DNA of 52,934 nt. Source: Candidatus Pacearchaeota archaeon. Its GTDB lineage: Archaea; Nanobdellota; Nanobdellia; Pacearchaeales; GW2011-AR1. The position numbers were made by a program, and so were the translations under genes. The stretch is from assembly GCA_017609795.1 (NCBI GenBank), contig JAFCDH010000001.1:1-52934 (forward strand), written 5' to 3'. Shown in pieces: positions 5,474 to 47,749 of this stretch. Positions within the stretch are counted from its first letter, which is position 1; every line of letters begins with the position of its first letter. The notes beneath the pieces are model-generated. The model was not told the DNA's origin. It saw nothing but the letters and a program-made list of their open reading frames with translations, and ran no database searches.

Positions 5474-5653
5474 ATGGAAAAAGAATTTAATTTAAGTGAG
5501 AAAATATTTGGAATTAGACAAGGATTTGTAGCTTATGAAGAAGAAATTAAAGAATTTATTAAGAGAGTGAAGATTGAATTTTATAGACCCTCAACTAATT
5601 GGGATAACTTTGAAGAGATAATAGACAAACTAGCAGGAGATAAATTAACATGA
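5474..5653 (+). CDS. hypothetical protein
   Basis: Track ORF 5459..5653 (TTG); in-frame ATG at 5474; stop overlaps next start. Confidence 0.45.
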   Translation: MEKEFNLSEKIFGIRQGFVAYEEEIKEFIKRVKIEFYRPSTNWDNFEEIIDKLAGDKLT

Positions 5654-6084
5654 AAACAATAAATTGGAATTTTAAATTGAAGAATTGTATTATTTGTAAT
5701 AATATTTTTAAACCAACTAATGGAAAACAAATAACTTGTTGTAAGGAATGTGAGGAAAAAAGAAAACTAAATTATAATAAGAAATATAACAAAAATAATC
5801 CTGAAATTGTTGCTAAATCTGTTAGAGAACATTATCAAAGAAATAAAAAAAAGAAATGTGAATATCAAATAAAATATAATCAAAATCATAAAGATGTTAT
5901 TAAATTAAGAAATGATACAAGAGAATATATTAGGAAAAATAAGATAAATTTTGTTGGTCTTTGTTTAGATTGTGGGAGATTATGTAAAAGAGAAATACAT
6001 CATATAACTCCAACCATTCAAGGATTTATTTTAATCTGTCAAGATTGCCATTACAAAAGACATAATAAAAGGAGTAGAAGATGA
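5650..6084 (+). CDS. HNH endonuclease with N-terminal zinc ribbon
   Basis: CIICNN..CCKECEE; C-terminal CLDCGR..EIHHITP..CQDCHYKRHNK. Confidence 0.6.
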   Translation: MKTINWNFKLKNCIICNNIFKPTNGKQITCCKECEEKRKLNYNKKYNKNNPEIVAKSVREHYQRNKKKKCEYQIKYNQNHKDVIKLRNDTREYIRKNKINFVGLCLDCGRLCKREIHHITPTIQGFILICQDCHYKRHNKRSRR

Positions 6085-9542: not shown

Positions 9543-9673
9543 CAACCAAAGAAGAAGCAGATAAAAGAAGAAAGGAGAAATCAAATAATGGGAACTCTGC
9601 AGGGATTGGGGTTTTATGTTATGGTTTAATAATGTTAATTTTTATAAATTTAAATATTATGTCACTAAAATGA
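9539..9673 (+). CDS. small tail-anchored ORF (44 aa)
   Basis: Hand-translated; C-terminal hydrophobic segment. Confidence 0.3.
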   Translation: MTTKEEADKRRKEKSNNGNSAGIGVLCYGLIMLIFINLNIMSLK

Positions 9674-9762
9674 AACAAAAATTTTCAACTAAATGGGTAG
9701 GAAGTAAACAACCAAGAAAACAAAGAAAATACAGAGCTAATGCTCAATCTTTGGAACGATAA
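9670..9762 (+). CDS. 30-aa ORF carrying the N-terminal signature of archaeal ribosomal protein uL24
   Basis: MKQKFSTKWVGSKQPRKQRKYRANAQSLER; SKQPRKQRK matches the uL24 N-terminus; truncated after about 30 aa. Confidence 0.35.
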   Translation: MKQKFSTKWVGSKQPRKQRKYRANAQSLER

Positions 9763-12080: not shown

Positions 12081-14948
12081 TTAATTTGGAGTTAATCCTC
12101 CTTCTAATGCTTTTATTCTTGCTGTTAAATCATCAATATCTTGTTTTTGTTCCTGAATTACTGATGTTAAAATAGTTAAATATTCATTTCTTGAAAGTTC
12201 AACCGTTTCTAATTCATCTGTAATTTCAGTATAATCAATTACATTTACACATAAAGTATCATTTACTAATTTTCCATTAACCATTTCTGTTAAAACTTCA
12301 CACTCTTTTTTATAATGAATAATTGTTTTATTTGTTGTTAGTTGTGGAAATATTTTTACTAAATCTTCTGCAATTATTCCAATTTCATTAGTTCTACTTT
12401 CATCTATTCTATCATATATTCTTGGTTCTATATCATAAAATCCTTTAGTATCATCAGAAGTAATATCCCTAATATTTTCTTTATATCTTTCTGATGATGT
12501 TTCATAAACTAATCTCCCATCTGATTGTATTCTTAAATTTCTTCCAACTGAGGTATTAGCATCATTATAAACTAAGGGCATATAAACCCCACCATCTTCA
12601 TCTATCTTAACACCTAATGTTGCTGCCTGACCACCATTAGGAACAGTATAAAATTCCATTTTCATTCCAAAACCTTTATCAAAATCAGAAATATAATAAT
12701 GGTTTTCAGTAGCCATTACTTTAATTGCAGAATAAGTAGCATAACCTATCCCAGAAGTCCACGCTCTAAAATAAAATCTTCCAACATTATCTCCTGATAA
12801 TAAATGAGAAGGAGATTCAAGTGTTCCTCTGCTTCTTTTTGTGTTCCATATTGGTGAAGCAGTAGTGTCCCGAGCATCAGTTATAATATATTGATGAGCA
12901 TTTAAAGAGTGAGTGATATGGTCAGCATCTGTTGTTAAAACCATGCCTCCTGTTCTTGTAATATCCCCTGTTCCTGCAATATCTCCAATTACTGCAACAG
13001 GCTTATTTATAATAATAGAAGGACTTCCTGTATCTATTGTGGTAATTCCAGCATCACTTACTGAAAAACTTATAAATTTTGTAGCATCATAACCAATTTT
13101 AAATTGTGGTTCTGTTGTAGAAAGAATTGTTGTAGCTCCTGCTCTTATATTTCTTGTTACATTTAAATTAGTAAAATTCCCCCAATCAACATTAGTAATA
13201 TTATTTCCACCTAAATCTAAATTTCCATTCCAAGTTAATTCTCCAATATATGCAGTTCCTGTTACAGTCAAGGTTGTAAAATTCCCATAAGTTGAATTGA
13301 TATTTGATGCAAAAACACCTCCACCAATATTTGCATCATCACCAACAATTAAATTATTTTGAACATCTAAATTTGCCTTAGCATTGCTTCCTCCTTGTTC
13401 ATTTCTTATTTTAAGTGTTCTTGCATTATCAGTATAAAATTCAATTTCTGCATCACCACTTACAAAGAACCATTCAGGAGAGTTTATCCATTCGATTACA
13501 GTATCTCCTCCATCAATAGCAATTCTATTGTCATTATCACCAAAAGCCCCAATTTTTGCTGTACCATCACCTATTAAAATATTAGATGATACTCCCATAT
13601 CAACATCATTATCAAACACAACACCATGCCCTTCTTCATTCTCTGCTATGTGGTCTACATAAAGATTTGTTGCATTTGTTAAATTATATACTCCAAGATT
13701 TAAATTTCCTGCCATATTTCTTGAACCATCAGCTAATAAATATTGTGGATGGTCATCATCTGAAAGTCCTGCTAAATCTCCATGGTCTGTAACAATATTA
13801 AAACTTTCTTCACTTATTCCAGGTCTTACATCTTGCCAAACAGCATTACTAAAATCAGTATCTCCTTGTTGATAAACTACTGTTGTTAATTTTGGAGTTT
13901 GTGCTAAGCCTTCAGGAATAGGAGATAATGCTCCTGCTTCTGCTTGTGCTTTTGTATTGTAATAAGTAGTTGGATAAACCCAACCTAATTGATGATGTGC
14001 ATAAATAAAATATGCTTTTGTCCATTTATTTGCAGGAATATTATCTAAATCATTTCCATCATCATATTGTATTGTATCTATTTCTGCATTAGAATCATTA
14101 GTCCAATCTCCTCCTGAATGAAATAATCTTATTAAAGGGAGTGTTCTTGAATTTATTGCTGTTGGATTTCTTTCTTCAATTCCATCTTTAATTAATTTTC
14201 CAGCATCCATTGAAACATCAAGGGAGTTTGTAGCATCTGTATCTTCACTAACACTCATTCCATTTATTATTCTATTTGGAAAAGCAATTCTTAATCCTCT
14301 ACGAGTATCTGACATTGAAGCATCAATTAAACTCATTTCCCTATATCCTGCAATATTTCCATCCCAATTTGAAAATTTTGCAATTAATATTTCATCACCT
14401 GAACTTGAACTTGTTTGCAATTCTAAAGTAGAAGTTCCTGTATATTTGAGATAATTAACTTGGTCACTTACTAAAGTTCCTGAACCCGCATCTGTTTTAA
14501 CAAAATCTTCAATTGAAAAATCATAAACTTCTCCTGCTGTCCATTCAACATCTAATCCTCCTGTAAGTGAAACTGTAATTGTTTCGGATACTCCACGATT
14601 AATTATATGATTAAAAGTATCTTTGATTGAATGTCCATCATGGTCTATTATGTGAGTTGAGTTTAATTGAACTCCTTTAACCTGAAAACCTGTTGCATTA
14701 ATATAATTTGCTGAAAAATTGTAAATTCCAATACCTATATCTTGATTTGAGTTAGAACCATTTATTGAAAGATAATTAGAAAACATCGAAGTAATACCAT
14801 CTAAAATGTATGTAACACTTTGATTACCCCAATAAATTCCTGTTGTTTTATTTAATTGGTCTGTTGGATGAAATTGTATATTTGAAGAAGCTAAAGTTAA
14901 TGGAATTATCAATAAGATTAATGCAAACATTAGATATTTTTTTATCAT
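12081..14948 (-). CDS. fibre/spike protein with C-terminal peptidase-S74 intramolecular chaperone domain
   Basis: Signal peptide; G/N/T-rich beta-helix-like repeats; TSSERYKENIRDI...IGIIAEDL then coiled coil at the C-terminus. Confidence 0.8.
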   Translation of the reverse strand: MIKKYLMFALILLIIPLTLASSNIQFHPTDQLNKTTGIYWGNQSVTYILDGITSMFSNYLSINGSNSNQDIGIGIYNFSANYINATGFQVKGVQLNSTHIIDHDGHSIKDTFNHIINRGVSETITVSLTGGLDVEWTAGEVYDFSIEDFVKTDAGSGTLVSDQVNYLKYTGTSTLELQTSSSSGDEILIAKFSNWDGNIAGYREMSLIDASMSDTRRGLRIAFPNRIINGMSVSEDTDATNSLDVSMDAGKLIKDGIEERNPTAINSRTLPLIRLFHSGGDWTNDSNAEIDTIQYDDGNDLDNIPANKWTKAYFIYAHHQLGWVYPTTYYNTKAQAEAGALSPIPEGLAQTPKLTTVVYQQGDTDFSNAVWQDVRPGISEESFNIVTDHGDLAGLSDDDHPQYLLADGSRNMAGNLNLGVYNLTNATNLYVDHIAENEEGHGVVFDNDVDMGVSSNILIGDGTAKIGAFGDNDNRIAIDGGDTVIEWINSPEWFFVSGDAEIEFYTDNARTLKIRNEQGGSNAKANLDVQNNLIVGDDANIGGGVFASNINSTYGNFTTLTVTGTAYIGELTWNGNLDLGGNNITNVDWGNFTNLNVTRNIRAGATTILSTTEPQFKIGYDATKFISFSVSDAGITTIDTGSPSIIINKPVAVIGDIAGTGDITRTGGMVLTTDADHITHSLNAHQYIITDARDTTASPIWNTKRSRGTLESPSHLLSGDNVGRFYFRAWTSGIGYATYSAIKVMATENHYYISDFDKGFGMKMEFYTVPNGGQAATLGVKIDEDGGVYMPLVYNDANTSVGRNLRIQSDGRLVYETSSERYKENIRDITSDDTKGFYDIEPRIYDRIDESRTNEIGIIAEDLVKIFPQLTTNKTIIHYKKECEVLTEMVNGKLVNDTLCVNVIDYTEITDELETVELSRNEYLTILTSVIQEQKQDIDDLTARIKALEGGLTPN

Positions 14949-15211
14949 TTTCTTTTTCTTTTGTGTTTTTTTACATTGAATTTCTTTCCTTTCTTGCTTC
15001 TCTTTGTGTATTTCCTAACTTTAACTCTGCCAAAGATATGCCCCGCAAAACGGGGGTGGGTTTTTTTTACTCTCCTTACGCGAGTTAAATCTCCGGGAGC
15101 CCTTGTTAATTTCCGTCCTGTAAGTTGTCCTGTCTTAGAATCTCTTGTTGCAATAGTTCTTCCTGTTTTTTCAATTTTGATAAATTCCTTAGTAACTCTT
15201 TTTACCATCAT
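14945..15211 (-). CDS. very basic small protein (possible nucleic-acid binding)
   Basis: Track ORF; K/R-rich, ends KKHKRKRK; overlaps neighbours by 4 nt. Confidence 0.55.
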   Translation of the reverse strand: MMVKRVTKEFIKIEKTGRTIATRDSKTGQLTGRKLTRAPGDLTRVRRVKKTHPRFAGHIFGRVKVRKYTKRSKKGKKFNVKKHKRKRK

Positions 15212-15432
15212 GATTTTATGACAAGCATTCTTTCCTGCTTATCCATTAAATTTAATTTAGATTTTACATCATCTTGAATAAGTAAGATTCCTTTATATAT
15301 ATTTGGTTTGAAAAAAGTTCTTTCTATACCAACCTTAACTATCCCTTCATCTCCAAATTTTTGATAAATTCCTTGCGGTAGCTTAATTGATGCTTTGTCT
15401 TTAAATATTCTTACTACTATTCTAATTCTCAT
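15208..15432 (-). CDS. hypothetical protein (weak AbrB/SpoVT-like feel)
   Basis: Track ORF; IKLPQGIYQKFG segment. Confidence 0.45.
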   Translation of the reverse strand: MRIRIVVRIFKDKASIKLPQGIYQKFGDEGIVKVGIERTFFKPNIYKGILLIQDDVKSKLNLMDKQERMLVIKS

Positions 15433-16112
15433 CTTAATTTAATTTTTTGAAGTTCTTTACATTCTCCAAGATGTTTAGTATATTCATCATAATTTCTAAA
15501 TGTCTCTCTACAATATTCACATTTTCTTTTTCTTCTTCTCCAAAGTATTATAAAGAAGAAAACCCCGATTAATAAAAGTATTGGTGGAGCAATTTTTTTC
15601 ATAATTTCTTCAATTTCAACTTCTTCATCTTCTATAATTTCTTCTGGTTCTGTTGGTTCTCCACCTATTGTTGTTCTTGTTACACTCCCGCAGCAAAGTT
15701 TATAAGAATAATGGCTATAGTTTCCTAAATGGCTATTATTTAATTTATTTAATGAAGCAATATGATAATCTCTTGGACAAACACCTGAAGTAATAGTGCA
15801 TTGAACACTTGCACAAAGGTTGTAATCATAAAACTTTTCCACACTCGCCACATGACTATCATTAATTTTATATTGGCTTAAAACAAAAGATTGATTACCT
15901 GTGCAATTTCCTGTGGTTAAATTTATTGTAATAATTTTTGGATAACAAATTGATTGATTAAAGTAACCTGGCTGGGCAATATGAGAATTTTCGGTTTGGT
16001 ACAAACTAAACATTTCAGTTTCTCCTGCTTCACATCCGTTTTCTCTTGTTATAGCACTTATCGTCGGTATTAATACCAAACTCATTAAAAAAATTATATA
16101 TAACATTTTCAT
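15429..16112 (-). CDS. type I membrane protein with triple NxSH repeats and cytoplasmic C2HC zinc finger
   Basis: Signal peptide; ENSHIA / NDSHVA / NNSHLG repeats; TM; tail CEYCRETFRNYDEYTKHLGEC. Confidence 0.65.
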   Translation of the reverse strand: MKMLYIIFLMSLVLIPTISAITRENGCEAGETEMFSLYQTENSHIAQPGYFNQSICYPKIITINLTTGNCTGNQSFVLSQYKINDSHVASVEKFYDYNLCASVQCTITSGVCPRDYHIASLNKLNNSHLGNYSHYSYKLCCGSVTRTTIGGEPTEPEEIIEDEEVEIEEIMKKIAPPILLLIGVFFFIILWRRRKRKCEYCRETFRNYDEYTKHLGECKELQKIKLR

Positions 16113-16366
16113 TATCTTAAAACTCTCCTTTTTATTGGTTTCTTCTTCATCATAATTTTATTTAAAAGAACTTCTCTATATCTAAAATAAACTACTACAA
16201 TAATTATTAAGATTAATAAACCAGCAATTAAAGGATGGTTAGGACTTATTTTTTCACCTATTGAAATTATAAAATCTTTTCCTTGAGTTGTTATTTCTTC
16301 AAATGTCAAAGGATATATTGAATAGATGATTGCTGCTATCACCATCAAAAGTATTAAATCTATCAT
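16112..16366 (-). CDS. two-TM small membrane protein
   Basis: Track ORF, hydrophobic. Confidence 0.55.
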   Translation of the reverse strand: MIDLILLMVIAAIIYSIYPLTFEEITTQGKDFIISIGEKISPNHPLIAGLLILIIIVVVYFRYREVLLNKIMMKKKPIKRRVLR

Positions 16367-19300
16367 TTTCTTTTTTTAAAAGCCCTCCTTAACCATGATT
16401 TAGCTTTTCTTCTTGCTTCATAATATTGAGGAAATTTATATATTTTTCCTTTTGCTTTTTGTTTTTCTAAAACAATTACACCACTAACTCCTGAGATAGT
16501 TATTATAAAAATCCAAAAAAGTACTGGTGATTGGTTGGTTATACATCTTGATTTTATTTCAGGAGTATCTTCTACATCTAACCAATCTCCTATAGGATTT
16601 CCTGCAAAACAAGAAAAAATCAAATCATCCAGATTTAAGCCCCCACAATCACTTGGACAGCTATAAAAACTTTCTCCTGATTCACAAAGCCCATTTCCAC
16701 ATATCGCTTTTGCTTCTATTATTATTTCTGGTTCTTCTTCTTCTTCAGGTGGTGTTGGTTCTCCTCCTCCACCTAAACTACTCGGCGTGGTATAAGTTAT
16801 TGTAAATTCTTTTGTTGTTTTATTTTCATTACTTGCTAAGTCACTTGAATAAATAGTTAAATTATATGTTCCATAATTTCCTTGAACAGCAGCTAACCCA
16901 CGAACATTACAAGTATAAGAAATATTTTCATTAGTTCCATCAAGGCTTCCAGTTGCATTATAAATTGAATACTTACAAGAAAGAGTATTTGTGTCAGAGG
17001 TAGTTGAATTAAAATAAATCATTTTAGAATCTACAGTTGTACTTATTGAAGAAAGGTTTATTTCAGGAAAAATAGTATCCACACCAAAAGTAAAATTGTT
17101 TAAAGCCCAATCTCCATTATTACTCGTATCATTGCACCAAACATTCCAGACAAATTCCGTGTCTGTTAAAGTAAAATTTGTATAATTTTGAACTCCTGAA
17201 TTAGGTTTTTTCCATGTAAAATTCTTATGCCAAGTCCCTGTAGCATTATGATAAAGTCTACAAGTATCTAAACCATTAACATCTGTTGAAGTAAAATTAA
17301 AATGAGAATTAACCCCAGTATTTAACCAAAGCCCATCTGTAGGATAATCTAAAACAGTTGATGGTGCAGTAAAAGAAAGCCCAAAAGTAACAGAAGAAGA
17401 ATTTATATTATTAAGAGTATCATTTACATAAAAAGTCAAAGTATATGCACCCTCACCTATTCCATCGATTTTAGTAACATTAAAAGTCATATTTGCACAA
17501 TCTGGAACAGTAGTATTGCTTGTAATTATATCTGTTGAATTAAAAATTCTATACCAGCAAGATTGAACACCAAGAGTTTCATCTGAAACAGTAAAATTTA
17601 AAGGAAGACTCTGATTTGTAGCATAATTTTGTGGTAGGGGTCTATATAAATCTAATAAAGGATTAGCATTATCTAAGGTAATTCTTCTTGTCCTAGTTTC
17701 ATTATAATTAGAAGCACCATCCCAAACACTAATATTATAATTATAAAACCCATCATTAAGCCCTGTCCAATTTACAACCCTTTGAGCAGTTGAATAAGTT
17801 GTTATATTTACTTGAGTTCCATTTCTATGATAAAGTCTAAAAGTAATATTTTTTTCATTTGTCTCTGTAACATTTGCATATACATAAATCCAGGTTCTTG
17901 TAAAATTTGTTTCATTAAGTTCAGTGCCAGTTCCATAGGAAATTAAAGGGTTGGTTGTGTCAATCGTGAAGGTTGTGGATTGAGTAGAGTTTGTATTTCC
18001 TACTGTATCATTACAATAAGCAGTTATTGTATAATCTCCGTCGGCAATAGAAGTGTTGGAGTAGTTCCCACCAGTTGAACTTGAATTTATAGATAAAGAA
18101 TAATTATTTAATCCAGAATTTAAACTCACAACACAGGCATTAAAATTTGTGCTTGTTAAATTTATGTGGATGAAGTTTTGTGAATAATAATTTGTATTTA
18201 CTGGATTTAAGATTCTATAATCTGGTGGAATTGTATCAATAAAAAAAGTAACATTGGAAGAATTTGTATTTCCAGCAGTATCATTTGTCCAAACCCTTAC
18301 AATATGCTTTCCATCTGTCCAAGTTATATCAGTTATATTTACTCCACAAGTTATTGAGGTGTTTAAAGTAAAAGTATCATTAGAATACCAACAAGAAGCT
18401 ATGTTTGTGTCGGCAAAGGTATATTCAACATCTAAAGTATTATCAGATGAACTTGTTCCATTTGTTGGACTTGTAATATTTATATAAGGGTGAACATTAT
18501 CTAAACTAAATACATCATTAAAATTATTTTCATTAACAGTAACATCATAAAGATGAGAAATTGTAGGATAACTAATATTTTGAGCATAAATTGTATAATT
18601 ACTATAATAAGTTGTAACTCCTCCAGTTCGATAATAATCAAATATTTCAGTTTGTGGAGTATACCCAGTATCATCTGTTGTAAAATTAAACTGAGGAGTG
18701 CCTGTAATATTATAAGCAGTTATATTTATTCCCTCAAGTGCAGAACCTGTATTTGAATCATTAACATAAGTTCTATAATACCATTTTCTATAAAGAGAAC
18801 AACCAGAACTAACATCTTCTTTTACTTTATCATAAGTTACATTTAAAAAAACATTATTAATTGATGCTGTTTCAAAGGGTGTAATTGTAACATCTACTGT
18901 TGTACTACTAATTTTTCCATCTTTTAAAAGATTATTGCTTGCACCATCTTGAAAATATACTCCATTTAGGTTATCATAAAAACTAAAATTAGTTAAATTA
19001 TTATCTAAAACATACCAAAAACCAATTGCCCATCTTGTTTCGCTTATTGTTATATCTGACCATTTATTTTTAGAACTTAAATAATCATCCCCCCACATAT
19101 TAATTCCTTCTGAAACCCCATTAGTTCCTGTAATAGTTATATTTTCTAAAACATTATTAACTGAATCTACAATATCAATACCATGGTCATAAACCCCATA
19201 ATTTCCTGTATTTATATTTATATCCTTTATTTCGATATTATCTGAACCACTAAAAATAGTAATTGCAGTAACACCAAAATTATTAATATTTCCGTTTTTA

Positions 19301-20172
19301 ATTACTGCATTATCTACTCCATTTATTACCCAAAATCCATAATTTGATTGCCCTCCTGGTTCTTCACCATTTCCTGTTAAGGTTTTTCCGTTCATATCAA
19401 ATATAATATCAGATGCTCTAAATGTAAAACAATTTCCAGCAATATTTGAAATATCTTGAGATAAAGTATATGTTCCTCCTGAATCTACAAATCCACAAGC
19501 AGAAATCTCTGGGTCTAATAATATTTCTATCTCTCCACCACCTTCTTTCTTATAACTTATTTCAAAATCATAATAAGCTGATTCATATTGTGGGAATTCA
19601 AAATTTATTTTATAAGCAAAATTTGTATCATCATAAGTTGTCTTGACTTTATCTCCTAAATAAGTCCAGTTATAAAATCTTTTTCTTTCAATTTCAAAAG
19701 AACAATCTTTTTCACAATCATAAAATTCAGTCTCATCAATACATTCATCAAAACAAGTTTCATTTGATAAAGTCTCATTATATAATTCAAATTGAGTAGA
19801 AAAATAAACATTATATTTCTTATCTTTAACTTGAGCATCCTTATCTAATAAAAATTTAAATATATCTACTGTTAAAGTATAATTAGGATTATAACCTTCT
19901 ATTATAGCATCACAAATCTTATATCCATCATTTATTGAATCAGGTTTCCAAAAACAATGCTCAACTATTTTTGCTGAAATTATAACTCCATCATTTTCAA
20001 TAATCTTCCTATTATTTTCTATTCTTTCTGTTTGCGGTTCATCAGCCAAAACAAAATAAAGACTAACACTTAAAACCAACCCAATTAAAATTATTACACT
20101 AAGTTTTCCCACACTCTTTTTATCCATTTTAAAATGTTGATTCAAATGTTGAATATTAGTTTTATAAACCAT
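16363..20172 (-). CDS. giant surface glycoprotein: parallel beta-helix + multiple Ig-like modules + C-terminal TM anchor
   Basis: NAVIKNGNINNFG/IEIKDININTGNYG beta-helix turns; repeated modules opening DTIPPD, DTTNPL, DNANPL, DTIFPE; CGNGLCESGESFYSCPSDCGG; dense NxS/T sequons; TM + basic tail. Alternative start at 20127. Confidence 0.8.
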   Translation of the reverse strand: MVYKTNIQHLNQHFKMDKKSVGKLSVIILIGLVLSVSLYFVLADEPQTERIENNRKIIENDGVIISAKIVEHCFWKPDSINDGYKICDAIIEGYNPNYTLTVDIFKFLLDKDAQVKDKKYNVYFSTQFELYNETLSNETCFDECIDETEFYDCEKDCSFEIERKRFYNWTYLGDKVKTTYDDTNFAYKINFEFPQYESAYYDFEISYKKEGGGEIEILLDPEISACGFVDSGGTYTLSQDISNIAGNCFTFRASDIIFDMNGKTLTGNGEEPGGQSNYGFWVINGVDNAVIKNGNINNFGVTAITIFSGSDNIEIKDININTGNYGVYDHGIDIVDSVNNVLENITITGTNGVSEGINMWGDDYLSSKNKWSDITISETRWAIGFWYVLDNNLTNFSFYDNLNGVYFQDGASNNLLKDGKISSTTVDVTITPFETASINNVFLNVTYDKVKEDVSSGCSLYRKWYYRTYVNDSNTGSALEGINITAYNITGTPQFNFTTDDTGYTPQTEIFDYYRTGGVTTYYSNYTIYAQNISYPTISHLYDVTVNENNFNDVFSLDNVHPYINITSPTNGTSSSDNTLDVEYTFADTNIASCWYSNDTFTLNTSITCGVNITDITWTDGKHIVRVWTNDTAGNTNSSNVTFFIDTIPPDYRILNPVNTNYYSQNFIHINLTSTNFNACVVSLNSGLNNYSLSINSSSTGGNYSNTSIADGDYTITAYCNDTVGNTNSTQSTTFTIDTTNPLISYGTGTELNETNFTRTWIYVYANVTETNEKNITFRLYHRNGTQVNITTYSTAQRVVNWTGLNDGFYNYNISVWDGASNYNETRTRRITLDNANPLLDLYRPLPQNYATNQSLPLNFTVSDETLGVQSCWYRIFNSTDIITSNTTVPDCANMTFNVTKIDGIGEGAYTLTFYVNDTLNNINSSSVTFGLSFTAPSTVLDYPTDGLWLNTGVNSHFNFTSTDVNGLDTCRLYHNATGTWHKNFTWKKPNSGVQNYTNFTLTDTEFVWNVWCNDTSNNGDWALNNFTFGVDTIFPEINLSSISTTVDSKMIYFNSTTSDTNTLSCKYSIYNATGSLDGTNENISYTCNVRGLAAVQGNYGTYNLTIYSSDLASNENKTTKEFTITYTTPSSLGGGGEPTPPEEEEEPEIIIEAKAICGNGLCESGESFYSCPSDCGGLNLDDLIFSCFAGNPIGDWLDVEDTPEIKSRCITNQSPVLFWIFIITISGVSGVIVLEKQKAKGKIYKFPQYYEARRKAKSWLRRAFKKRK

Positions 20173-20173
20173 C

Positions 20174-20665
20174 CTAAGTATTTAAATTTAACTGAAACTC
20201 TCCAAATATAATAAATTTAAACTTATCTAAAAGGTTTTTTTCAGGTATTTTACAAAAAATCTGTTCTTTTTCTATTTGAAAATTGTCTTCAAAATTATTA
20301 TTATCCCCTTTTGTCTTAAAAAAATAACCACTTTTAGCAGAAATTCTATGACCAATTAATTCAATTTTTCCATTAACTGGAACATAGAAGGCTATAATAT
20401 CTCCAATATTATAATTTTTTTGAGGAATACAAAGACACTCATCATCACTATAGATGTTTGGTTCCATAGAATCACCATTCACCCTCATAATATAAAGTGG
20501 ATTTTTTTTCAGTTCTTCCCTTATTTCATTAACTACTTCTCCTTCATAAGTAACAAATGTTTCATAATGAATTTCTTTCCCAGGATAACAAAGTGGTGCT
20601 TTTACATTTATAAAAAAGATTCCAAGTATCAAGATTATTCCTAAGATAATTAATTCCCATTTCAT
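20174..20665 (-). CDS. type I signal peptidase, archaeal/ER (S26B, Sec11/SipW-like)
   Basis: N-terminal TM; NGDSMEP (Ser box), IGHRI (His box), TKGDNN (box E). Confidence 0.75.
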   Translation of the reverse strand: MKWELIILGIILILGIFFINVKAPLCYPGKEIHYETFVTYEGEVVNEIREELKKNPLYIMRVNGDSMEPNIYSDDECLCIPQKNYNIGDIIAFYVPVNGKIELIGHRISAKSGYFFKTKGDNNNFEDNFQIEKEQIFCKIPEKNLLDKFKFIIFGEFQLNLNT

Positions 20666-21183
20666 AGTTTCTTTAAGAACAATATTAATATTGCTATAAC
20701 CCCCGCTATTAAAGCTATTACAGTTGATTTATTTTTAAATAGTAATGAAATATGTGTTATAAAAGTTTCTGCTTCTTCTTCACAAGCATCTAAAGTAGTA
20801 AAATAAGTAGCAGGACATCCTTCTTCTTGTAAAAAATATTCTGAATAACATCTATCATCTTCCCCAATAAAATAACATTCTATTTTTGGTTTTTCTACTG
20901 CTTTTATCCCATATTTTAATTCACATTCGTGTTTTGTTGAATAATATCCTTCAGGGCAAACTAGTAAATTTTGTTCAGTGAAATTAATTAAATTAACTTT
21001 TTGTTGAACACAGGTATCAGAAGTAGATAAAGTATAACAGATTCCAGTAGTATTTGAAACAAACCCCACCATTTCCTGTCCACCAAAAAGTATAAAAGTA
21101 AATTGTGGTTGTTGTGTCGCCCAAATAAATAAGATTAGTACAATCAGTCCAAAAATTAATTTCTCTTTATCTTTCATTTTCAA
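20662..21183 (-). CDS. secreted Cys-rich protein with C-terminal TM anchor
   Basis: Signal anchor, 10+ Cys, C-terminal IALIAGVIAILILFL. Confidence 0.6.
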   Translation of the reverse strand: MKMKDKEKLIFGLIVLILFIWATQQPQFTFILFGGQEMVGFVSNTTGICYTLSTSDTCVQQKVNLINFTEQNLLVCPEGYYSTKHECELKYGIKAVEKPKIECYFIGEDDRCYSEYFLQEEGCPATYFTTLDACEEEAETFITHISLLFKNKSTVIALIAGVIAILILFLKKL

Positions 21184-21952
21184 TATTTAATATAATCTCT
21201 TGAGTTTCTGAATACTCATAATTATATTTTTCATTTAATAGTGATTGAAAGAATTTAGTCCAGTGTTTTCTGTTGAAATTCACTTCTGAGTGGCATCCCC
21301 AACACAAACTTATACAATTTTGAGGTATTGAGAGCTTTTTATCATAATTTACATGATGAATCGATAATGCTCTACTTTCTTTTTCTTGATGTTTCCCACA
21401 TTTTAGACATATATAATTGTCTCTTTTTCTTATTGCTCTTTTAAATTTTCTAGTAAATCTTAAATCATAAGGTTCAAAAGAAATCCCTCCCCTCCAAGCA
21501 GGGCTTTTCTCTCCACTTCTACCATTTAATTTACCCTCTGCATATAATTTCTTTAGTGTCTTACTAAGATTCTTTGAAAGTCTTCTTAAAGGTTCATAAT
21601 TCTCTTTTGTTTTTCCTTTACAATGGGGGATGTTTCCTTTTTTAAATTCTCTTAAAGGGGGCTTTCCGCTATTAAATTTACTACAACTAACTTTTACTTT
21701 ATTTTCATTAAGAATCATATAGATAGGAGTAAGACTACAATTAAATTTCTTTGTTATTTGTGGTCGTCCTGAAAGGTTTCCCTTAACATACATATCTACT
21801 ATTTTTTTCATTGGAAGATTTAATCTCTTTGGTAAATCTAATGTTTTCCCTTTATGATTAGGAGTGTGTCCTTTTTTAAATTCTGTTTCTGGAGAATAAT
21901 GTTCTCCTTTAACAAATCTTCCTTTTGAATCTCTTTTTGTATTTTCTTTCAT
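21167..21952 (-). CDS. HNH homing endonuclease with NUMOD-like DNA-binding modules
   Basis: FKKGHTPNHKGK / FKKGNIPHCKGK repeats; HTH IVDMYVKGNLSGRPQITKKFNC; CLKCGK..SIHHVNYD..CWGCHSEVN. Confidence 0.75.
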   Translation of the reverse strand: MKENTKRDSKGRFVKGEHYSPETEFKKGHTPNHKGKTLDLPKRLNLPMKKIVDMYVKGNLSGRPQITKKFNCSLTPIYMILNENKVKVSCSKFNSGKPPLREFKKGNIPHCKGKTKENYEPLRRLSKNLSKTLKKLYAEGKLNGRSGEKSPAWRGGISFEPYDLRFTRKFKRAIRKRDNYICLKCGKHQEKESRALSIHHVNYDKKLSIPQNCISLCWGCHSEVNFNRKHWTKFFQSLLNEKYNYEYSETQEIILNIENER

Positions 21953-28854: not shown

Positions 28855-29166
28855 TTAAGGTGAAATTGATGAAAAGATTTGAGGTATTAAATCTGGTAAA
28901 TAATAAAATAATCCAATTATTGCACCAGCTTCTATAATAATAAATATAATGTCTTTAGTATTCAAACTTCCAATTCTTTTACCTAAAGTATAAAGACTAA
29001 TTATTGCAACAACAACTAATACTAAAAGAAAAGTCCATCCTAATTTTAATGGAGTTGAATCTACAAATTCTGAATATATATAACTTCCTGCTTGCAGGGC
29101 TACAAAAATTATTAAAAGGGTGATGAATAATTTGTTAACGTCTAGTCCCCCTGCTTTTAATGCCAT
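28855..29166 (-). CDS. small polytopic membrane protein
   Basis: Track ORF, 3 TM. Confidence 0.55.
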   Translation of the reverse strand: MALKAGGLDVNKLFITLLIIFVALQAGSYIYSEFVDSTPLKLGWTFLLVLVVVAIISLYTLGKRIGSLNTKDIIFIIIEAGAIIGLFYYLPDLIPQIFSSISP

Positions 29167-29966
29167 TTTATAAACTCCTTAATTTTATTTACTACTTGAG
29201 GTGTATTTTTTAATTCGTGTTCCCAAATAACTAAAGTTTTATATCCATATTTAGAATAAGTTGCTAATCTTTCTTTGTCTTTCTTTTGGGTATTTCTATG
29301 CCAATAATCTCCAAACAATTCTATTATATATTTTGGGTTTTTTGATAGGAAGTCTGGATTGAAGCTCATTGTTTTCCCCCTAAACCAAATGTTTCCACTA
29401 CCAACATAATTGAAAGGAAGATTATTTTTTTGTATTAAATCAATCATATTTTTTTCTGGCTTGTTTGGTCTTATTTTTGCTCCTCTTTTTTGAGCTTTTA
29501 ATTGTCTTTCTCTATATTCATTATCTTGCCAAAGTTTTTTTTGAGCTAATCTATTTTTTTCGTTGCTTTCTTCTAATCTTTTTATTCCTTTGGTTGGAGA
29601 AATATTCTCTTTATTAAAATATTTAGCACCCTTCATTTTAATATTATGTTTTTTGAAAATATCATAAATAACAGAAAAATCACAACCAAACCTCTTAGCT
29701 ATCTTTGTCCCAGAAATGTCTTTATTTAAATACATCTTAACAATTTCTTTTTCAGGCAAATTAAGTTTGTTTGTTGGGGATTTGTTTTTCATATAAAATT
29801 TTTGTGGTATAATCTTTATATTATTCTCTTTAAGAATTCTTTTTATTACTGATTCATCACAATTCATTGATTTAGAAATATTTTTCATAGTAAAGTTCTT
29901 ACTATATAAACTTATAATTTCATCCTTTCTTTTATCTATATCCTTTCTCCTATTCCAAGATTTCAT
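29157..29966 (-). CDS. homing-type endonuclease: two NUMOD1-like HTH repeats + Vsr/DUF559-like PD-(D/E)xK domain
   Basis: IISLYSKNFTMKNISKSMNCDESVI and IVKMYLNKDISGTKIAKRFGCDFSVI; LPFNYVG..NPDF..IIELFGDYWH..TLVIWEHE. Confidence 0.7.
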   Translation of the reverse strand: MKSWNRRKDIDKRKDEIISLYSKNFTMKNISKSMNCDESVIKRILKENNIKIIPQKFYMKNKSPTNKLNLPEKEIVKMYLNKDISGTKIAKRFGCDFSVIYDIFKKHNIKMKGAKYFNKENISPTKGIKRLEESNEKNRLAQKKLWQDNEYRERQLKAQKRGAKIRPNKPEKNMIDLIQKNNLPFNYVGSGNIWFRGKTMSFNPDFLSKNPKYIIELFGDYWHRNTQKKDKERLATYSKYGYKTLVIWEHELKNTPQVVNKIKEFIKWH

Positions 29967-35034: not shown

Positions 35035-35982
35035 TTAATCGCTGAAGTGAGTTTTACTTGTTTTTTGCTGAGATAGGTCAGTATCTGCGCCACCAAGCAA
35101 GTTTTCTTGTTCGTCTTCTGCTCCAAACTTAATTCCGTCTATAGTAGAATAACCTGGTTCAAGATATAATGCAGTGTCTATAAGTTGTCCCTGTATCCAA
35201 GATAAATCTCCTGGTGCTGTACTTCCAATTTTAACAACTGCATAAGTAATAATTGTACCATCTGTTGCGTAAGCATCACTGTCTCTTTGAAAACAATATA
35301 GTGTATGTTCTACTAAACTTGGGTCTTTTCTTCCTGGACAAGGTATTTCTGTATATTTTCCACCTGCACTGTCTGCTTTAGTGATTGTTATATCTTCTAT
35401 AACAGTCCTAGTCCCATTAGTTTCATAAACAATTATTGGTTTTCTTACTCCACTGTTACTAACATTAACTTTCCACTTTGCTCTAAATTCTTCTGTTGCT
35501 CCTGCTGTACCTGAAATGTTTTGATTAAGGTCAACTGGGTCATCCATTGCAGATAAAGTTAATCCTCCTCTCAAAACTAATTTTGTTGTTACTGTATGTT
35601 TTGGTTTGTTTCCACAATTAGCTGAAAACTTCTTAGCCAAATATCCTGAACTTTCTCCTAACTTATTATAAGCCCAAATATCATAATCTGTATTTACTCT
35701 TGCTGTTACTGTATCTTTTCCATCATCTCCTGCTTCACCTGAATCGAAAAATGTCCCATCTCCATTGAACATAATATAAGAAGCATTAACATTAGTATCT
35801 GTTGTTGATAATTCATCTTTGAATTTCAATATCAAATCACATTGTAAATCACTTGGAACAAGTTCATCATCAACACCATCATCAGCTGGTCCACCAATAT
35901 AGCCTGCACTGTAAGCGAAATAAATAGCAATAAGAACTACTGCAATCCATATAACCGGATTTGCTTTTCCTAATTTATTCAT
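35035..35982 (-). CDS. candidate major structural protein with pilin-like (class III-like) N-terminus
   Basis: MNKLGKA-NPVIWIAVVLIAIYFAYSA resembles archaeal prepilin N-termini; appears monocistronic, with its own upstream region and a terminator hairpin. Confidence 0.6.
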   Translation of the reverse strand: MNKLGKANPVIWIAVVLIAIYFAYSAGYIGGPADDGVDDELVPSDLQCDLILKFKDELSTTDTNVNASYIMFNGDGTFFDSGEAGDDGKDTVTARVNTDYDIWAYNKLGESSGYLAKKFSANCGNKPKHTVTTKLVLRGGLTLSAMDDPVDLNQNISGTAGATEEFRAKWKVNVSNSGVRKPIIVYETNGTRTVIEDITITKADSAGGKYTEIPCPGRKDPSLVEHTLYCFQRDSDAYATDGTIITYAVVKIGSTAPGDLSWIQGQLIDTALYLEPGYSTIDGIKFGAEDEQENLLGGADTDLSQQKTSKTHFSD

Positions 35983-36410: not shown

Positions 36411-36515
36411 ATAAATTTAAATACCTTAATATCTTAAATAAATTGTCTCCAAGGGGTTTTTTAACTCTTTTTGACAATCAACAACCAACATTTGGACAAC
36501 ATTCAAAATTCAAAA

Positions 36516-38261
36516 ATGGAGCAAAATTTTACTAGCCAGTATCTCAACTTTTTAAAAAAAGAAGGATTGATAGATGAAATAATAAGTGGGGCAACAAACA
36601 ACCCAGTAGATACAATTACCTTTTCTAAAACTCAAGATTCTTTTTCTTTTCCACAACCAAATTTAATTTATAGTAAAAATAATAGAGAAGAAATTGAACC
36701 TTATATTATAGAGTTAGATTACCAAGCCAAAAAATTAAAAGAATTAGGATTAGAAATCATTTCAAGAAGAATAAAAAAGAAATGGAAAAAGGGGCAGACT
36801 GTTGAATATAAATTAAGAAAAAAATCTTTTTTTGATGATGAATACATAGAAATCTTAAAAGGGATTCCTGCTAATCACAAGGTAAGAATTGACAAAGCAA
36901 ATGGAAAAGCTAAATTAGTTGGTCCTAATTGCAGAAACAAACTAAACATAAAAGGAGAAACAGATTGGATTTATTTTCAAGGACAAAAAAGAGAATATAA
37001 AAAAAATATAGAAGATGATTTTTCTCTGCCAGACATTTCTTTAACTAAACCAAAACCATTAAAGATGGCAATAAAAGATATTCCTATTATGGTTGGATTG
37101 GATGGAAGCATAGTCTGTATCCCCCACAGACACGAGCCAAATAATATTGCTGTTGTTGGAAGCAAGGGGACAGGAAAAACCCTAATACTTAATAGGCTTG
37201 CTTCAGAAATTCTTTGGAATTGGAAAGAAGCTCCCATAATTATAAATGACATCCAGCAAGAATGTGAGGTTTGGAGTGAGCCTTTAGAAAATATAGAATG
37301 GGCTAATCACTTAAAACTTATAGATGAAAAACCTTTTGCTTCTCCAATTATTTATATTTATCCTCACACTTCAGATTTAAAATTAGATTATAATGAATTA
37401 AAAAGCCAGATAAATTTTGTTGAAACAACACTTCCTTTTTCAGAAGTAATCAATAAAGCGGAAATTTATTTGAAATTAGAAAAAGACAAGGGAACAATAA
37501 GATATATTTGGGGGATGAAAGAAGAGCTATTGGGATGTGAAACCCCGGGGGAAGTTACTAGTTTAATCGAAGAGAAATATGACCAAAGGAAATATGAGAC
37601 TATGAAAAACAAAATGGTTGTTAGTTTTGAGAATGTCTTTAATGATGAAATCCTTAATATAACTAATAAAGAATATCCTTGTTTTTTAGAAAGTGGTGAC
37701 TTTAAAGGAAATCCTTTTGTTGTCTTAGCTAAGATTGGATTGATTCCTTGTTTTGAAACTTATGATTTAAACAACAAAAGATATATGCCAGAAGTGATAA
37801 GCTATCATTTAGAAAGTATTTTTGAAAGTAAATTTAGAGGAAAAATTTTAGAAGGGAAAACTGTCTATATAATATTTGATGAATTAACTCACATTTGTTC
37901 TGATGATAATAAAAATTCTGCTTATGATTCTGTCTGTAAATTATATACAAGGGGAAGAAAATTAGGAATTGGAAATGTTTGTGCAACACAAAACTATTCT
38001 AAGATTCCAAGAAAGGTCAAAAATAATATTGACTTTGTTTTTGCTTTTAAACATTCAAGTGAAGAAGAAGTAACCTTAATTAAAAAAGATTATGATTTAA
38101 AAGATATAGATAAAGATGAGATATTTAATTTAGAAAGTTTTGAGGTTTTAGGAATTACCAACGAATATTTTAATTGTTATAAAAATGGGGAAATAAATAA
38201 AAAAAAAGTTGTTCAGGGAAAAATAATTTTTCCAATGAGCAACCACATGGCGCCGTTATAA
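36516..38261 (+). CDS. HerA/FtsK/VirB4-superfamily P-loop ATPase
   Basis: Track ORF from TTG 36471; first ATG at 36516; Walker A VVGSKGTGKT, Walker B VYIIFDELTH, RGRKLGIGNVCATQNYSKIP. Confidence 0.75.
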   Translation: MEQNFTSQYLNFLKKEGLIDEIISGATNNPVDTITFSKTQDSFSFPQPNLIYSKNNREEIEPYIIELDYQAKKLKELGLEIISRRIKKKWKKGQTVEYKLRKKSFFDDEYIEILKGIPANHKVRIDKANGKAKLVGPNCRNKLNIKGETDWIYFQGQKREYKKNIEDDFSLPDISLTKPKPLKMAIKDIPIMVGLDGSIVCIPHRHEPNNIAVVGSKGTGKTLILNRLASEILWNWKEAPIIINDIQQECEVWSEPLENIEWANHLKLIDEKPFASPIIYIYPHTSDLKLDYNELKSQINFVETTLPFSEVINKAEIYLKLEKDKGTIRYIWGMKEELLGCETPGEVTSLIEEKYDQRKYETMKNKMVVSFENVFNDEILNITNKEYPCFLESGDFKGNPFVVLAKIGLIPCFETYDLNNKRYMPEVISYHLESIFESKFRGKILEGKTVYIIFDELTHICSDDNKNSAYDSVCKLYTRGRKLGIGNVCATQNYSKIPRKVKNNIDFVFAFKHSSEEEVTLIKKDYDLKDIDKDEIFNLESFEVLGITNEYFNCYKNGEINKKKVVQGKIIFPMSNHMAPL

Positions 38262-43566: not shown

Positions 43567-44379
43567 TTATGCAGTCTTTGTGTATGTTATCAAATCTGTT
43601 TCAAATAAGTAAGTTTCTGGTTCACTCCAACTTGAAAGTGTTGCTTTTGCTTCTTCCTCATTACCTGGAATTAACCATAACTTAGCACCATTACAAACTT
43701 TTGCATTTGGATTAAATCCATTATCACAATAATCATCTCCTACATCTATTTCTAATGGTAAACTATCAATCTCATTTGAACCTTCAGATAATACAATTAC
43801 ATTAGCAATATTAGTTGCAAAATCATCACCTTCAGTATTTGGATAATATATTAAAGTATACCCTTCTGGAATTCCTGTTGCAATAAAATTAGTTCCAGTT
43901 ACACTATATGTAATTTCAGCAGTTTCACCAATATGTTCCCAAGTACTTGTATCTTTTTGAGTAAAGTATGCTATTGCAATTATGTCCCCTTCTCCTCTAG
44001 ATAAAATCACATTTCCACTAACTTCTCCAATTACACTTTCTGAGTCATAACATAATTCAATAGTTATTGTATTTATACCATTAGATAAGGTTTCTGTTCT
44101 TGGCATATCTGTTATAGCATAAGTAACTCCATTTGGATTTGAAGTCTCAACCCAATTTAATTGGATTGGTAAGTCACTATTTGCATCATTAGTAACATCA
44201 AATGATTTCTCAACACAATCTCCAACCACTCCTGAAAAATCTAATTCAACTGTTTCAGTAGACAAAGCTTCACTTACTGTAAATGTAACATTAATAGTTG
44301 CAAAATATATTGCTACTGCACTAACTAAAACAACAGCTAACAAAGGTAAAATTAATCCATATAATAATTTCTTTTTCAT
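43567..44379 (-). CDS. secreted beta-rich protein (weak TasA/camelysin-like N-terminus)
   Basis: Signal peptide then AIYFATINVTFTVSEAL. Confidence 0.55.
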   Translation of the reverse strand: MKKKLLYGLILPLLAVVLVSAVAIYFATINVTFTVSEALSTETVELDFSGVVGDCVEKSFDVTNDANSDLPIQLNWVETSNPNGVTYAITDMPRTETLSNGINTITIELCYDSESVIGEVSGNVILSRGEGDIIAIAYFTQKDTSTWEHIGETAEITYSVTGTNFIATGIPEGYTLIYYPNTEGDDFATNIANVIVLSEGSNEIDSLPLEIDVGDDYCDNGFNPNAKVCNGAKLWLIPGNEEEAKATLSSWSEPETYLFETDLITYTKTA

Positions 44380-46753: not shown

Positions 46754-47749
46754 TTAAAACATTTTATTTAATTCTTTATAAATCTCTTCTGAAGTAAATT
46801 TAACTATCCTTTTTCTTCCACCACCCCTTCCAAGATTTTTATGATAAGTTTCTATTACAGAATATTTTTCAAAAGTATTTAATAATTGAGAAATCCTAGC
46901 CTTAGAATAAAATTTCATTTTCTTTTCCAGATTCTCTGCAGTGGTTTCATTTTTCCAATCACAAGACCCTATAATATATCTTAAAAATTCTCTTTCTGTT
47001 TCATTAATATCATTAACAAAATCAAACCAATCTTGTTTTAACATTTGTTTATAAACATTGTCTATAAAGCTATGGGTAAAATTTCTTTTTTGAATACATT
47101 TAAGGGCTATATGGATTAATACTCTTGCAGAACCTTGCTGTCCTGCTATTGCAGAAATATAATTTAAAACCCCATCCTCAATCTTAGGTATCTTTGTTTT
47201 TATTTGTTTAATCCTTGAAATTAAAATATCTTTTAATTCTATAGAATTATAAGCAGGAAGACTTACTTTTTCAAAAAACAAAGTCTTTCTAGCATCTACA
47301 GGCATCTCAGAAATTATATTTCTTTTCATTGTTATAATAATTATTGGAATCATTGTGTTTCTATAAATTGTATTTAAATTATTAAACAATTGATTGACCC
47401 TGCTTATTTTATCTATCTCATCTATAATTAAAATGATTGGTTCTTCCTTAATCTTTTCTATTGTTCTTTTTAATAATTCCTCATTAGTTTTTATATTAAA
47501 ATTAAAGATTTTTTTTAAGGTCTTGTAAGGTGTTTGTGTTTCTAAACCAGAAACATAAATTGCATTATCTTGTTCTTCCAAAATCTTTTTTATAATGGTT
47601 GTTTTTCCACTCCCTGTAACACCTAATATTGCTAAATTAGTCCCACATTTATATTCTTTAAAATTAATAAAAACCTCCCTTATAACCTTCATTTGTTTGT
47701 CTCTATGTAAAATTTCTTTGGGTATATAAAAGTCTGATAATTCTAACAT
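46754..47749 (-). CDS. cdc6: Orc1/Cdc6 AAA+ replication initiator
   Basis: Walker A GVTGSGKTT, Walker B LIIDEIDK, C-terminal winged-helix-like region; adjacent ORB repeats. Confidence 0.85.
   Translation of the reverse strand: MLELSDFYIPKEILHRDKQMKVIREVFINFKEYKCGTNLAILGVTGSGKTTIIKKILEEQDNAIYVSGLETQTPYKTLKKIFNFNIKTNEELLKRTIEKIKEEPIILIIDEIDKISRVNQLFNNLNTIYRNTMIPIIIITMKRNIISEMPVDARKTLFFEKVSLPAYNSIELKDILISRIKQIKTKIPKIEDGVLNYISAIAGQQGSARVLIHIALKCIQKRNFTHSFIDNVYKQMLKQDWFDFVNDINETEREFLRYIIGSCDWKNETTAENLEKKMKFYSKARISQLLNTFEKYSVIETYHKNLGRGGGRKRIVKFTSEEIYKELNKMF

Follow-up and report, generated by a model that had tools for sequence, protein, structure and literature searches.

Introduction

A Ser paired with a His rather than a Lys base, together with a G-D-N-N...D stretch, is the signature of S26B signal peptidases in the MEROPS classification, S26A and S24 proteins using Lys instead. 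Two type I signal peptidase homologues carried by bacterial plasmids, SipP and TraF, are S26A (Ser-Lys) enzymes, and the trimming done by TraF of plasmid RP4 is C-terminal and accompanied by cyclisation of the pilin. SipP of Bacillus subtilis (natto) plasmids can replace the host enzymes, according to Tjalsma et al. 1999 as cited in PMC10779165, and TraF of the IncP plasmid RP4 matures that plasmid's own surface-filament subunit TrbC (PMC12037004); because of these two cases, a mobile element with its own signal peptidase is not new in principle. Within the S26B type, SipW of Bacillus is an accessory peptidase dedicated to an operon of its own substrates, and archaeal TasA-like ABP loci have been described without a dedicated peptidase (PMC9245690). 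Here we analyse an archaeal S26B-type enzyme of 163 amino acids (aa), encoded at 20174..20665 on the minus strand, immediately upstream of a giant surface glycoprotein. Both genes lie in a stretch of 52,934 nt ("the window"), which is the entire contig JAFCDH010000001.1 (C78) and the longest contig in the metagenome-assembled genome (MAG) of a Candidatus Pacearchaeota archaeon (GCA_017609795.1; 883 kb, 79 contigs, 83% complete, 6.5% contamination).

Set beside the described S26B type I signal peptidases (SPases; Sec11, TIGR02228, SipW), the window enzyme has the same single N-terminal transmembrane helix, the same Ser in an S-M box, His in an H-R box and G-D-N-N...D, and the LexA/SPase beta-fold; its best family matches are TIGR02228 and SipW. 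It differs in scoring below the cutoffs of both families, in forming a clade of its own marked by four invariant cysteines, and in being element-borne and sporadic, whereas the known family is universal. SipP and TraF are comparable as homologues carried by mobile elements, but they are bacterial, and the window enzyme is archaeal, of S26B type and part of a glycoprotein adhesin module. A literature search of incomplete coverage found no report of an archaeal virus, plasmid or other mobile element encoding a signal peptidase.

The arrangement recalls SipW with TasA/TapA in B. subtilis, as an accessory S26B enzyme lies within a secreted-protein operon and the housekeeping SPase is encoded elsewhere. 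The module has no TasA/camelysin protein or SipW-cognate signal peptide, however, and next to the peptidase are encoded small membrane proteins and a giant Ig-repeat adhesin. An earlier note on this DNA, made from the sequence alone, had proposed the SipW-TasA analogy, described the product of 43567..44379 as weakly TasA-like and regarded a signal peptidase on a mobile element or virus as unusual. That product and nine other module proteins gave no TasA/camelysin or SipW-cognate signal-peptide match in Pfam/NCBIfam at E-values up to 5, which leaves the analogy without sequence support in the module proteins, and "unusual" was an overstatement in view of SipP and TraF.

SipA/LepA of the Streptococcus pyogenes pilus (FCT) islands is a further SPase-fold protein encoded in a surface-appendage cluster. 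Its structure (4N31) is among the best matches to the window enzyme, and the window module likewise has a pilin-like protein of two beta-sandwiches. SipA, a signal-peptidase homologue, is described as indispensable for polymerising the pilus; in the window enzyme Ser and His are invariant, and the module has no sortase. SipA reportedly lacks the catalytic residues and serves as a chaperone in pilin polymerisation. Nearest in biological setting are the giant surface-protein clusters of DPANN chromosomes, which also combine an accessory S26B peptidase (of the type found on contig C37 of this MAG) with Big_13 giants. The window cluster differs from them in being part of a sporadic element that brings replication and ATPase genes of its own, and in having a peptidase of another clade.

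An S26B-type peptidase with four invariant cysteines

By its motifs and modelled fold, the 163-aa product is a membrane-anchored signal-peptidase homologue of the S26B type (Ser-His, Sec11/SipW kind), and probably an active accessory peptidase on a sporadic, non-core element. The GDSMEP, GHRI and GDNN boxes listed in the earlier note are all present. The predicted catalytic residues Ser66 (nt 20468-20470, minus strand) and His106 (nt 20348-20350, minus strand) are invariant in an alignment of 55 clade members, as are G64, M67, Y85, G120 and N123; P24, P69, D89 and D127, the last of which goes with the GDNN box, are kept in at least 90% of them. Four cysteines are equally invariant: C26 past the transmembrane helix, C77-x-C79 and C138, found in the contexts P-x-C, C-x-C and F-C-x-I-P. 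All four are missing from the C37 and C65 enzymes of the same MAG. Judged by this alignment they are the mark of a distinct subfamily, and they suggest two disulfides or one Cys4 metal site in the ectodomain.

Residues 1-27 are hydrophobic according to a hydropathy heuristic, and the AlphaFold (AF2) model (predicted local distance difference test, pLDDT, 90.1; predicted template modelling score, pTM, 0.83) has a helix at residues 3-20, the presumed N-terminal transmembrane anchor, with a beta domain after it. When the model was compared with the PDB using Foldseek, the top 21 of 21 matches fell within the LexA/signal-peptidase clan (LexA, UmuD, lambda cI, 7P2Q/7P2P chain A, SipA, SpsB). LexA C-domains rank first by E-value; the longest alignments, of 129-147 columns including the transmembrane helix, are those to 7P2Q/7P2P chain A, SipA and SpsB. 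Chain A of 7P2Q/7P2P, from the human signal peptidase complex, which we take to be SEC11C/A, aligns over 129-131 columns at 21-22% identity. The match to S. pyogenes SipA (4N31) has template modelling (TM) scores of 0.44/0.50 and a root-mean-square deviation of 2.7, and Staphylococcus aureus SpsB was matched as well.

Family models agree with this placement in their ranking. The top NCBIfam match is the archaeal signal peptidase I model TIGR02228, followed by Bacillus SipW (NF046067), of which the window enzyme is no equivalog at 22.3 bits against a cutoff of 190, and then by bacterial SPase I. Pfam Peptidase_S24 (PF00717) matches above its cutoff (28.9 against 23.3 bits), an assignment at superfamily level only, and the PHROG matches, phrog_4 and phrog_6201, are both labelled 'repressor'.

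A clade apart from the housekeeping Sec11

Four S26B-like genes are found in the MAG, on contigs C65, C44 and C37 and in the window. Those on C65 (C65:2758-3303) and C44 (C44:25-585) form a 74% identical pair with the boxes SSSMDH, HRIV and GDHN. Their type is present in 94 of the 101 genomes of the family, including 20/20 of the high-quality ones, and is the housekeeping Sec11. The occurrence of two such copies suggests that two related strains or species are contained in the bin, as its 6.5% contamination would allow; each copy adjoins a near-identical 88-aa regulator gene. The C37 type (GSMKP, HRV and GDNNN), present in 30 of the 101 family genomes, is a second accessory paralogue. As the host carries its own universal Sec11, the window peptidase is an extra enzyme, and the possibility raised against its own reading by the earlier note, namely that this is the organism's sole housekeeping Sec11, fails on the separate C65/C44 genes and the C37 paralogue. 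Nor is it a recent copy of a host gene, since its sole match in its own genome is 44% identical over 63 aa (E=0.01).

A search of the order for the window type returned 8 of 201 genomes at E<=1e-5, six of which really carry the C37 or C65 type, so that the window type is restricted to two genomes, G000 and G195. A maximum-likelihood tree (quick search, with support from the Shimodaira-Hasegawa-like approximate likelihood ratio test, SH-aLRT) resolves the window, C37 and C65 types as three separate clades with SH-aLRT values of 99, 99 and 97. The phylogenetic placement that the earlier note had suggested as a check therefore puts the window peptidase in a third well-supported clade, apart from both host types. 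This clade comprises 73 rows of the tree: the window, the related contigs L007, L026 and L015, and 69 metagenomic representatives (50% identity). It is seen only on this sporadic element family and on short metagenomic contigs, most of them with module-like genes.

A giant adhesin-like glycoprotein next to the peptidase

The downstream gene (16363..20172, minus strand) encodes an adhesin-like type I membrane glycoprotein of 1269 aa, as indicated by its open reading frame, Big_13 matches, 89 homologues, sequons and transmembrane segment. Its ATG follows the peptidase stop codon after a single nucleotide (TAG-G-ATG); the coordinates, lengths and 1-nt gap of the two reading frames are exactly those of the earlier note. 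Starting at M16 would provide a more typical signal peptide and widen the gap to 46 nt. Either start is possible, since the nearest orthologue shows partial conservation of the first 15 codons. The signal peptide (residues 1 or 16 to 43; 20044..20172, minus strand) is predicted to be cleaved at FVLA|DEP, and the corresponding motif [VF]-x-A|[DENSG] occurs at the same place in the homologues P0154, P0155, P0174, P0167 and P0161.

Residues 553-1133 (16774..18516, minus strand) form six tandem Ig-like modules of Big_13 type, delimited by self-alignment, boundary motifs and Pfam. Each is 92-103 aa long, and they have a common motif skeleton and 20-34% pairwise identity; Pfam calls Big_13 on two of them. 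The earlier note had counted at least six such modules; six were recovered, five with the boundary D-[TN]-x-x-P and the sixth with SFTAP. A Cys knot at residues 1158-1178, with the sequence CGNGLCESGESFYSCPSDCGG, is followed by more Cys up to residue 1210, by a transmembrane anchor at 1215-1237 (knot and anchor together at 16462..16701, minus strand) and by a basic tail that runs to the stop codon. The knot is kept in homologues, and the C-terminal knot/transmembrane region is conserved in P0154, P0155 and P0174. There are 60 N-x-S/T sequons, against 27.3 +/- 4.5 expected and a maximum of 43 in 2000 composition-preserving shuffles. High sequon density, knot and anchor had all been described before and are confirmed here.

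The parallel beta-helix, also part of the earlier description, is the weakest of the features claimed for the giant. A putative right-handed beta-helix head at about residues 225-450 (18823..19500, minus strand) is assigned by homology only: residues 16-551 are 36% identical to P0174 and residues 18-349 are 38% identical to P0167, and the regions aligned in these two proteins are Beta_helix/NosD. On the giant itself, residues 200-560 gave no Pfam beta-helix match. The 89 homologues are DPANN surface proteins that are 35-52% identical over the Ig stalk and C-terminal anchor, and they place interchangeable heads (beta-helix, Laminin_G, pentaxin, CBM96, S8 peptidase) on the Big_13 stalk. A comparison with L007 illustrates such an exchange, the giant being a mosaic whose N-terminus is 36% identical and whose C-terminal 560 aa are 73% identical, with the head replaced.

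A surface-protein operon conserved in related contigs

The window and two other metagenomic contigs, L007 and L026, all have a small Cys-rich type I gene (169-190 aa), the peptidase and a giant in this order, and the genes overlap or nearly abut at their junctions. In the window the upstream partner is a 173-aa Cys-rich type I membrane protein (20662..21183, minus strand), the gene of which overlaps the peptidase start by 4 nt; its orthologues stand directly upstream of the peptidase in L007 (70% identity), L026 (54%) and L052 (50%). L007 and the window have a 9-gene stretch in common at 49-73% identity, and L026 is collinear with the window over about 14 genes at 28-84% identity. L052 has the 169-aa gene and the peptidase in common with the window, and L053 keeps both too. 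In L015, which belongs to genome G195, the common genes are those for the ATPase, the peptidase, a 315-aa protein, a 260-aa membrane protein, an Ig-like protein and Alba; with L027 and L028 the window has in common giants and some of the module genes. Two other members of the clade have different partners: P0003 lies between genes for a 486-aa protein and an 809-aa CBM96/LVIVD protein, and P0008 follows a gene for a 530-aa CBM96 coiled-coil protein. The element family often includes the peptidase, though not without exception. A gene for a 327-aa Zn-dependent phospholipase C occurs two genes upstream of the peptidase in L052 and L053 (L052:6512-7495, L053:2171-3154); its presence in a related module could bear on entry or egress.

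Downstream of the giant, an 84-aa small membrane protein (16112..16366, minus strand) is encoded with a start that overlaps the end of the giant by 4 nt, and its orthologue holds the same position in L007 (49% identity). The distal operon genes (12081..16112, minus strand) encode a 227-aa type I membrane protein, the products of two small genes and a 955-aa secreted protein. The latter is tail-fibre-like, with a C-terminal Peptidase_S74 intramolecular chaperone domain (Pfam). Ends in this part overlap by 1-4 nt, and the genes have orthologues in L007. Upstream, the co-directional module collinear with L026 (21167..35982, minus strand) includes an HNH endonuclease, a 449-aa Cys-rich membrane protein, a CBM96 coiled-coil type I protein, about 12 small polytopic membrane proteins, a CARDB protein, an Ig-like secreted protein, a 260-aa polytopic protein and the 315-aa protein with an N-terminal helix and two beta-sandwiches.

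The operon that contains the peptidase spans roughly 24 kb and is tightly coupled, nearly every product being exported or membrane-inserted. Using the hydropathy heuristic, 46% of the proteins encoded in the window were classed as membrane or secreted, compared with 26% elsewhere in the MAG (p=6e-4), and 7.6% against 1.7% as type I proteins with a signal peptide and a C-terminal anchor (p=0.004). By the same heuristic 16 candidate exported proteins have an N-terminal hydrophobic segment, and at least 12 show small residues at -3/-1 when read by eye.

An accessory peptidase of the C37 type is found within conserved chromosomal surface-protein clusters of two other Pacearchaeota-type genomes (L016:3594-17802 and L017:90-17321). 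These clusters encode three paralogous type I proteins of about 400 aa, anchored proteins of about 160 and 205 aa, and giants of 664/688 and 1312/1467 aa, which makes the pairing of a peptidase with a giant less unique to the window. With two S26B clades in surface-protein operons, it is plausible that dedicated processing is a general theme in these archaea.

A sporadic, mobile-element-like contig

Words of the host's dispersed intergenic repeats occur once in the 53 kb of the window, where most other long contigs show roughly 0.3-2 per kb. Despite being the longest contig, it has the second-largest tetranucleotide distance from the centroid of all those with a length of 10 kb or more. It encodes a divergent Orc1/Cdc6-like AAA+ protein (46754..47749, minus strand) that reaches 86.5 bits with TIGR02928 (cutoff 181.3), besides the canonical Orc1/Cdc6 of the host on contig C5, which scores 334 bits. 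The latter gene (C5:8899-11082) is a single open frame of 772 aa that the family model matches in two pieces, as would fit an intein or other insertion.

The element hallmark is a 596-aa P-loop ATPase of FtsK/HerA/A32-like type (36471..38261, plus strand), with Pfam matches to Pox_A32, Zot and FtsK, a PHROG match to phrog_2666 and weak matches to HerA in the PDB. It is present in 2 of 401 genomes of the order, the same two as the peptidase, and both genes are missing from the same-genus genomes listed in these searches (eight for the peptidase, twenty for the ATPase). The window also carries NUMOD3/DUF559 and HNH endonucleases, a PD-(D/E)XK nuclease, DNA methylases, an Alba gene and many small orphan genes. 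A sporadic distribution, a replication gene of its own and a composition unlike that of the host are thus all seen, and we conclude that the window is not ordinary chromosome but a sporadic, mobile-element-like contig, probably extrachromosomal or mobile.

A 79-bp stretch (9667..9745, plus strand) is a 97% identical copy of the 5' end of a host gene (C25:18678-18756), identified with blastn and by inspection; the gene on C25 is presumably that for ribosomal protein uL24. The copy, a 30-codon remnant with an early stop, ties the window to this host lineage and could be either a captured host fragment or an att-like site. Rfam and transfer RNA scans of the window gave no matches, and the MAG has no clustered regularly interspaced short palindromic repeat arrays.

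Several further observations concern this contig and its relatives. Free-standing HNH or NUMOD3/DUF559 (Vsr-like) endonuclease genes lie at 21167-21952, 29157-29966, 2323-3045, 46390-46752 and 5650-6084, and in L026 the orthologue of the first has another location, which is what one would expect of homing endonucleases. The PD-(D/E)XK nuclease (50534-51205, plus strand) is 82% identical to its counterpart in L027 (L027:25410-26057), a 40.7-kb metagenomic contig whose other common genes are only 26-49% identical to those of the window, a difference that suggests recent exchange of this gene between elements. A secreted two-gene cassette (270 and 176 aa; 42984-44379, minus strand) has a paralogous copy at C52:14386-15806, with amino acid identities of 58% and 48% and a nucleotide identity of 72%. 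Contig C52 is also poor in host repeats and rich in small orphan genes, which could make it another mobile element of this MAG. Adjoining the secreted-protein genes, at 41164-43003 (minus strand), are genes for a BcrAD/BadFG-type activase ATPase and a DUF2229/HGD-D-like product, which one would hardly expect a mobile element to carry in an archaeon of such minimal metabolism.

Possibly a virus or another mobile element

Pfam and PHROG scans of the window found no capsid, portal, terminase or known major capsid protein, and with no capsid hallmark found the window is at most a possible virus. The 315-aa protein encoded next to the ATPase (35035..35982, minus strand) is modelled (pLDDT 76.6) as an N-terminal helix and two Ig/CnaB-like beta-sandwiches. 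Among PDB structures it comes closest to Gram-positive sortase pilins, with low TM scores (0.25-0.30), and its sole viral structural lead is the BFVD entry A0A5Q2WAX2 (309 aa, without a name; E=1.8e-13, TM 0.63/0.64). A capsid role for this protein was considered and rejected, as the model is not a jelly-roll. Its 12 homologues (47-75% identity) are all metagenomic, and a scan of GTDB genome contigs with the 315-aa alignment found nothing beyond the window's own genome. IMG/VR scans with the ATPase, peptidase and 315-aa alignment returned no relatives, and a tblastn search of phage and archaeal-virus records with the ATPase gave no match. The S74 tail-fibre chaperone domain hints at a virus, as does the A32/FtsK-like ATPase, but neither goes beyond a hint. 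Where the earlier note had written of a mobile element or virus, the former stands in the sense of a sporadic, mobile-element-like contig and the latter is unproven.

We nevertheless put forward, tentatively and as a doubtful rather than a favoured proposal, that the window, L007, L026, L015 and L052 represent undescribed enveloped viruses or conjugation-like elements of Pacearchaeota, in which an own four-cysteine S26B enzyme would mature an adhesin coat with swappable heads.

Proposed dedicated processing and its alternatives

The arrangement described above leads us to the following model. The host Sec system would insert the precursor proteins of the element, and the element's own peptidase, with an active site predicted on the outer face of the membrane, would remove their signal peptides, the giant being cut after ...FVLA and before DEP. 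The element would thereby gain processing capacity or specificity independent of the host enzyme when surface or envelope proteins are produced in a burst. Enzymatic activity is predicted from the conserved catalytic residues, and the exported products of the module are its presumed substrates. We lean somewhat towards this full reading, dedicated processing of the element's exported proteins included, with distinctly less assurance than towards an active accessory enzyme on a non-core element.

Several findings count against it. In the distant relative L015 the peptidase adjoins the Alba gene and not a giant, and no peptidase was detected in the stretch retrieved from L027 and L028, both of which have giants; because of these three contigs, the giant is not strictly dependent on the peptidase, and host Sec11 could process all of these proteins. 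Homologues of the giant keep [VF]-x-A|[DENSG] with or without an adjacent peptidase, so no special substrate specificity is evident. As to the enzyme itself, the TIGR02228 match (43.0 bits) is under the cutoff of 51.85, the Foldseek E-values are modest (1.5e-3 to 5e-2, with TMq of 0.35-0.46), and position 121 of the GDNN box, D in the majority of clade members, is T, V, I, L or E in some others. As to the contig, the link to the host rests on binning, in a MAG with 6.5% contamination, and on the 79-bp fragment. The window has no terminal direct or inverted repeats, its reading frames are open at both ends, and no integrase was found among the proteins scanned, so that "extrachromosomal" is a term we infer rather than read from the contig.

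The missing integrase and terminal repeats, together with the lack of a capsid and of IMG/VR relatives, would also agree with the window being a strain-specific chromosomal island, its peptidase a lineage-specific Sec11 paralogue that serves a surface adhesion cluster in the manner of the C37 type. Such clusters do exist, with giants of 1312 and 1467 aa in L016 and L017, and giant Big_13 proteins are common in DPANN genomes. An island of this kind would hardly be expected to be a compositional outlier nearly free of the host's dispersed repeats, to have an Orc1/Cdc6-like gene besides that of the host, or to contain several homing endonucleases and a PD-(D/E)XK nuclease 82% identical to that of an otherwise far more divergent contig. 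The occurrence of the ATPase in 2/401 genomes and of the peptidase in 2/201, with both absent from the same-genus genomes listed, also speaks against it, and we regard an island as unlikely.

Similarly improbable, in our estimate, is a peptidase that acts as the dedicated maturation factor of one neighbour, either the 173-aa protein or the giant, in the way of RP4 TraF or SipA. In its favour are the precedent set by TraF, the place of SipA 4N31 among the best structural matches, the resemblance (at low TM) of the 315-aa protein to Gram-positive pilins, and the four invariant cysteines, which suggest a specialised ectodomain. The most constant neighbour is indeed the upstream 169-190-aa gene (L007, L026, L052/L053), but the neighbours differ in L015, L050 and L055. 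Moreover, the N-terminal signal peptides of all candidate neighbours are of the ordinary kind, with [VF]-x-A sites, and the catalytic Ser and His are invariant, unlike in SipA, which is said to be non-catalytic.

A third alternative is that the peptidase acts on host proteins, remodelling the cell surface for superinfection exclusion, egress or takeover. It would suit a sporadic element whose enzyme belongs to a clade distinct from those of the host, and the phospholipase C two genes upstream in a related element hints at membrane-active functions. With the exported proteins of the element itself as the most economical substrates and no specific evidence for host targets, we consider it very improbable. 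Finally, an S24 self-cleaving regulator of LexA/CI type, to which PF00717, the two PHROG 'repressor' labels and the first rank of LexA C-domains in Foldseek might point, can be set aside, as an N-terminal transmembrane helix takes the place of a DNA-binding domain, the base is an invariant His where S24 has Lys, and the best NCBIfam matches are signal peptidases.

Implications for DPANN elements and their hosts

What is new here is a four-cysteine S26B clade on an uncatalogued DPANN element family, encoded next to a giant adhesin with swappable heads. Its roughly 70 representatives (50% identity) place a signal peptidase within the surface-protein operon of a sporadic DPANN element, and the family represented by this 53-kb contig, as an uncatalogued mobile element of DPANN archaea, is worth closing and classifying. 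Surface contact is essential to the way DPANN archaea live. Should the enzyme be specific for the proteins of the element, this would account for how a parasite with a minimal cell as host ensures enough processing when giant glycoproteins are made in a burst, and it would offer a compact, testable enzyme-substrate pair made up of a 163-aa protease and a conserved V-x-A|D-E site. If the reading as viruses or conjugation-like elements is true, the window enzyme would become the first signal peptidase found on a mobile element of archaea, viral or otherwise, and would open a way to study how elements associated with DPANN recognise cells and enter them.

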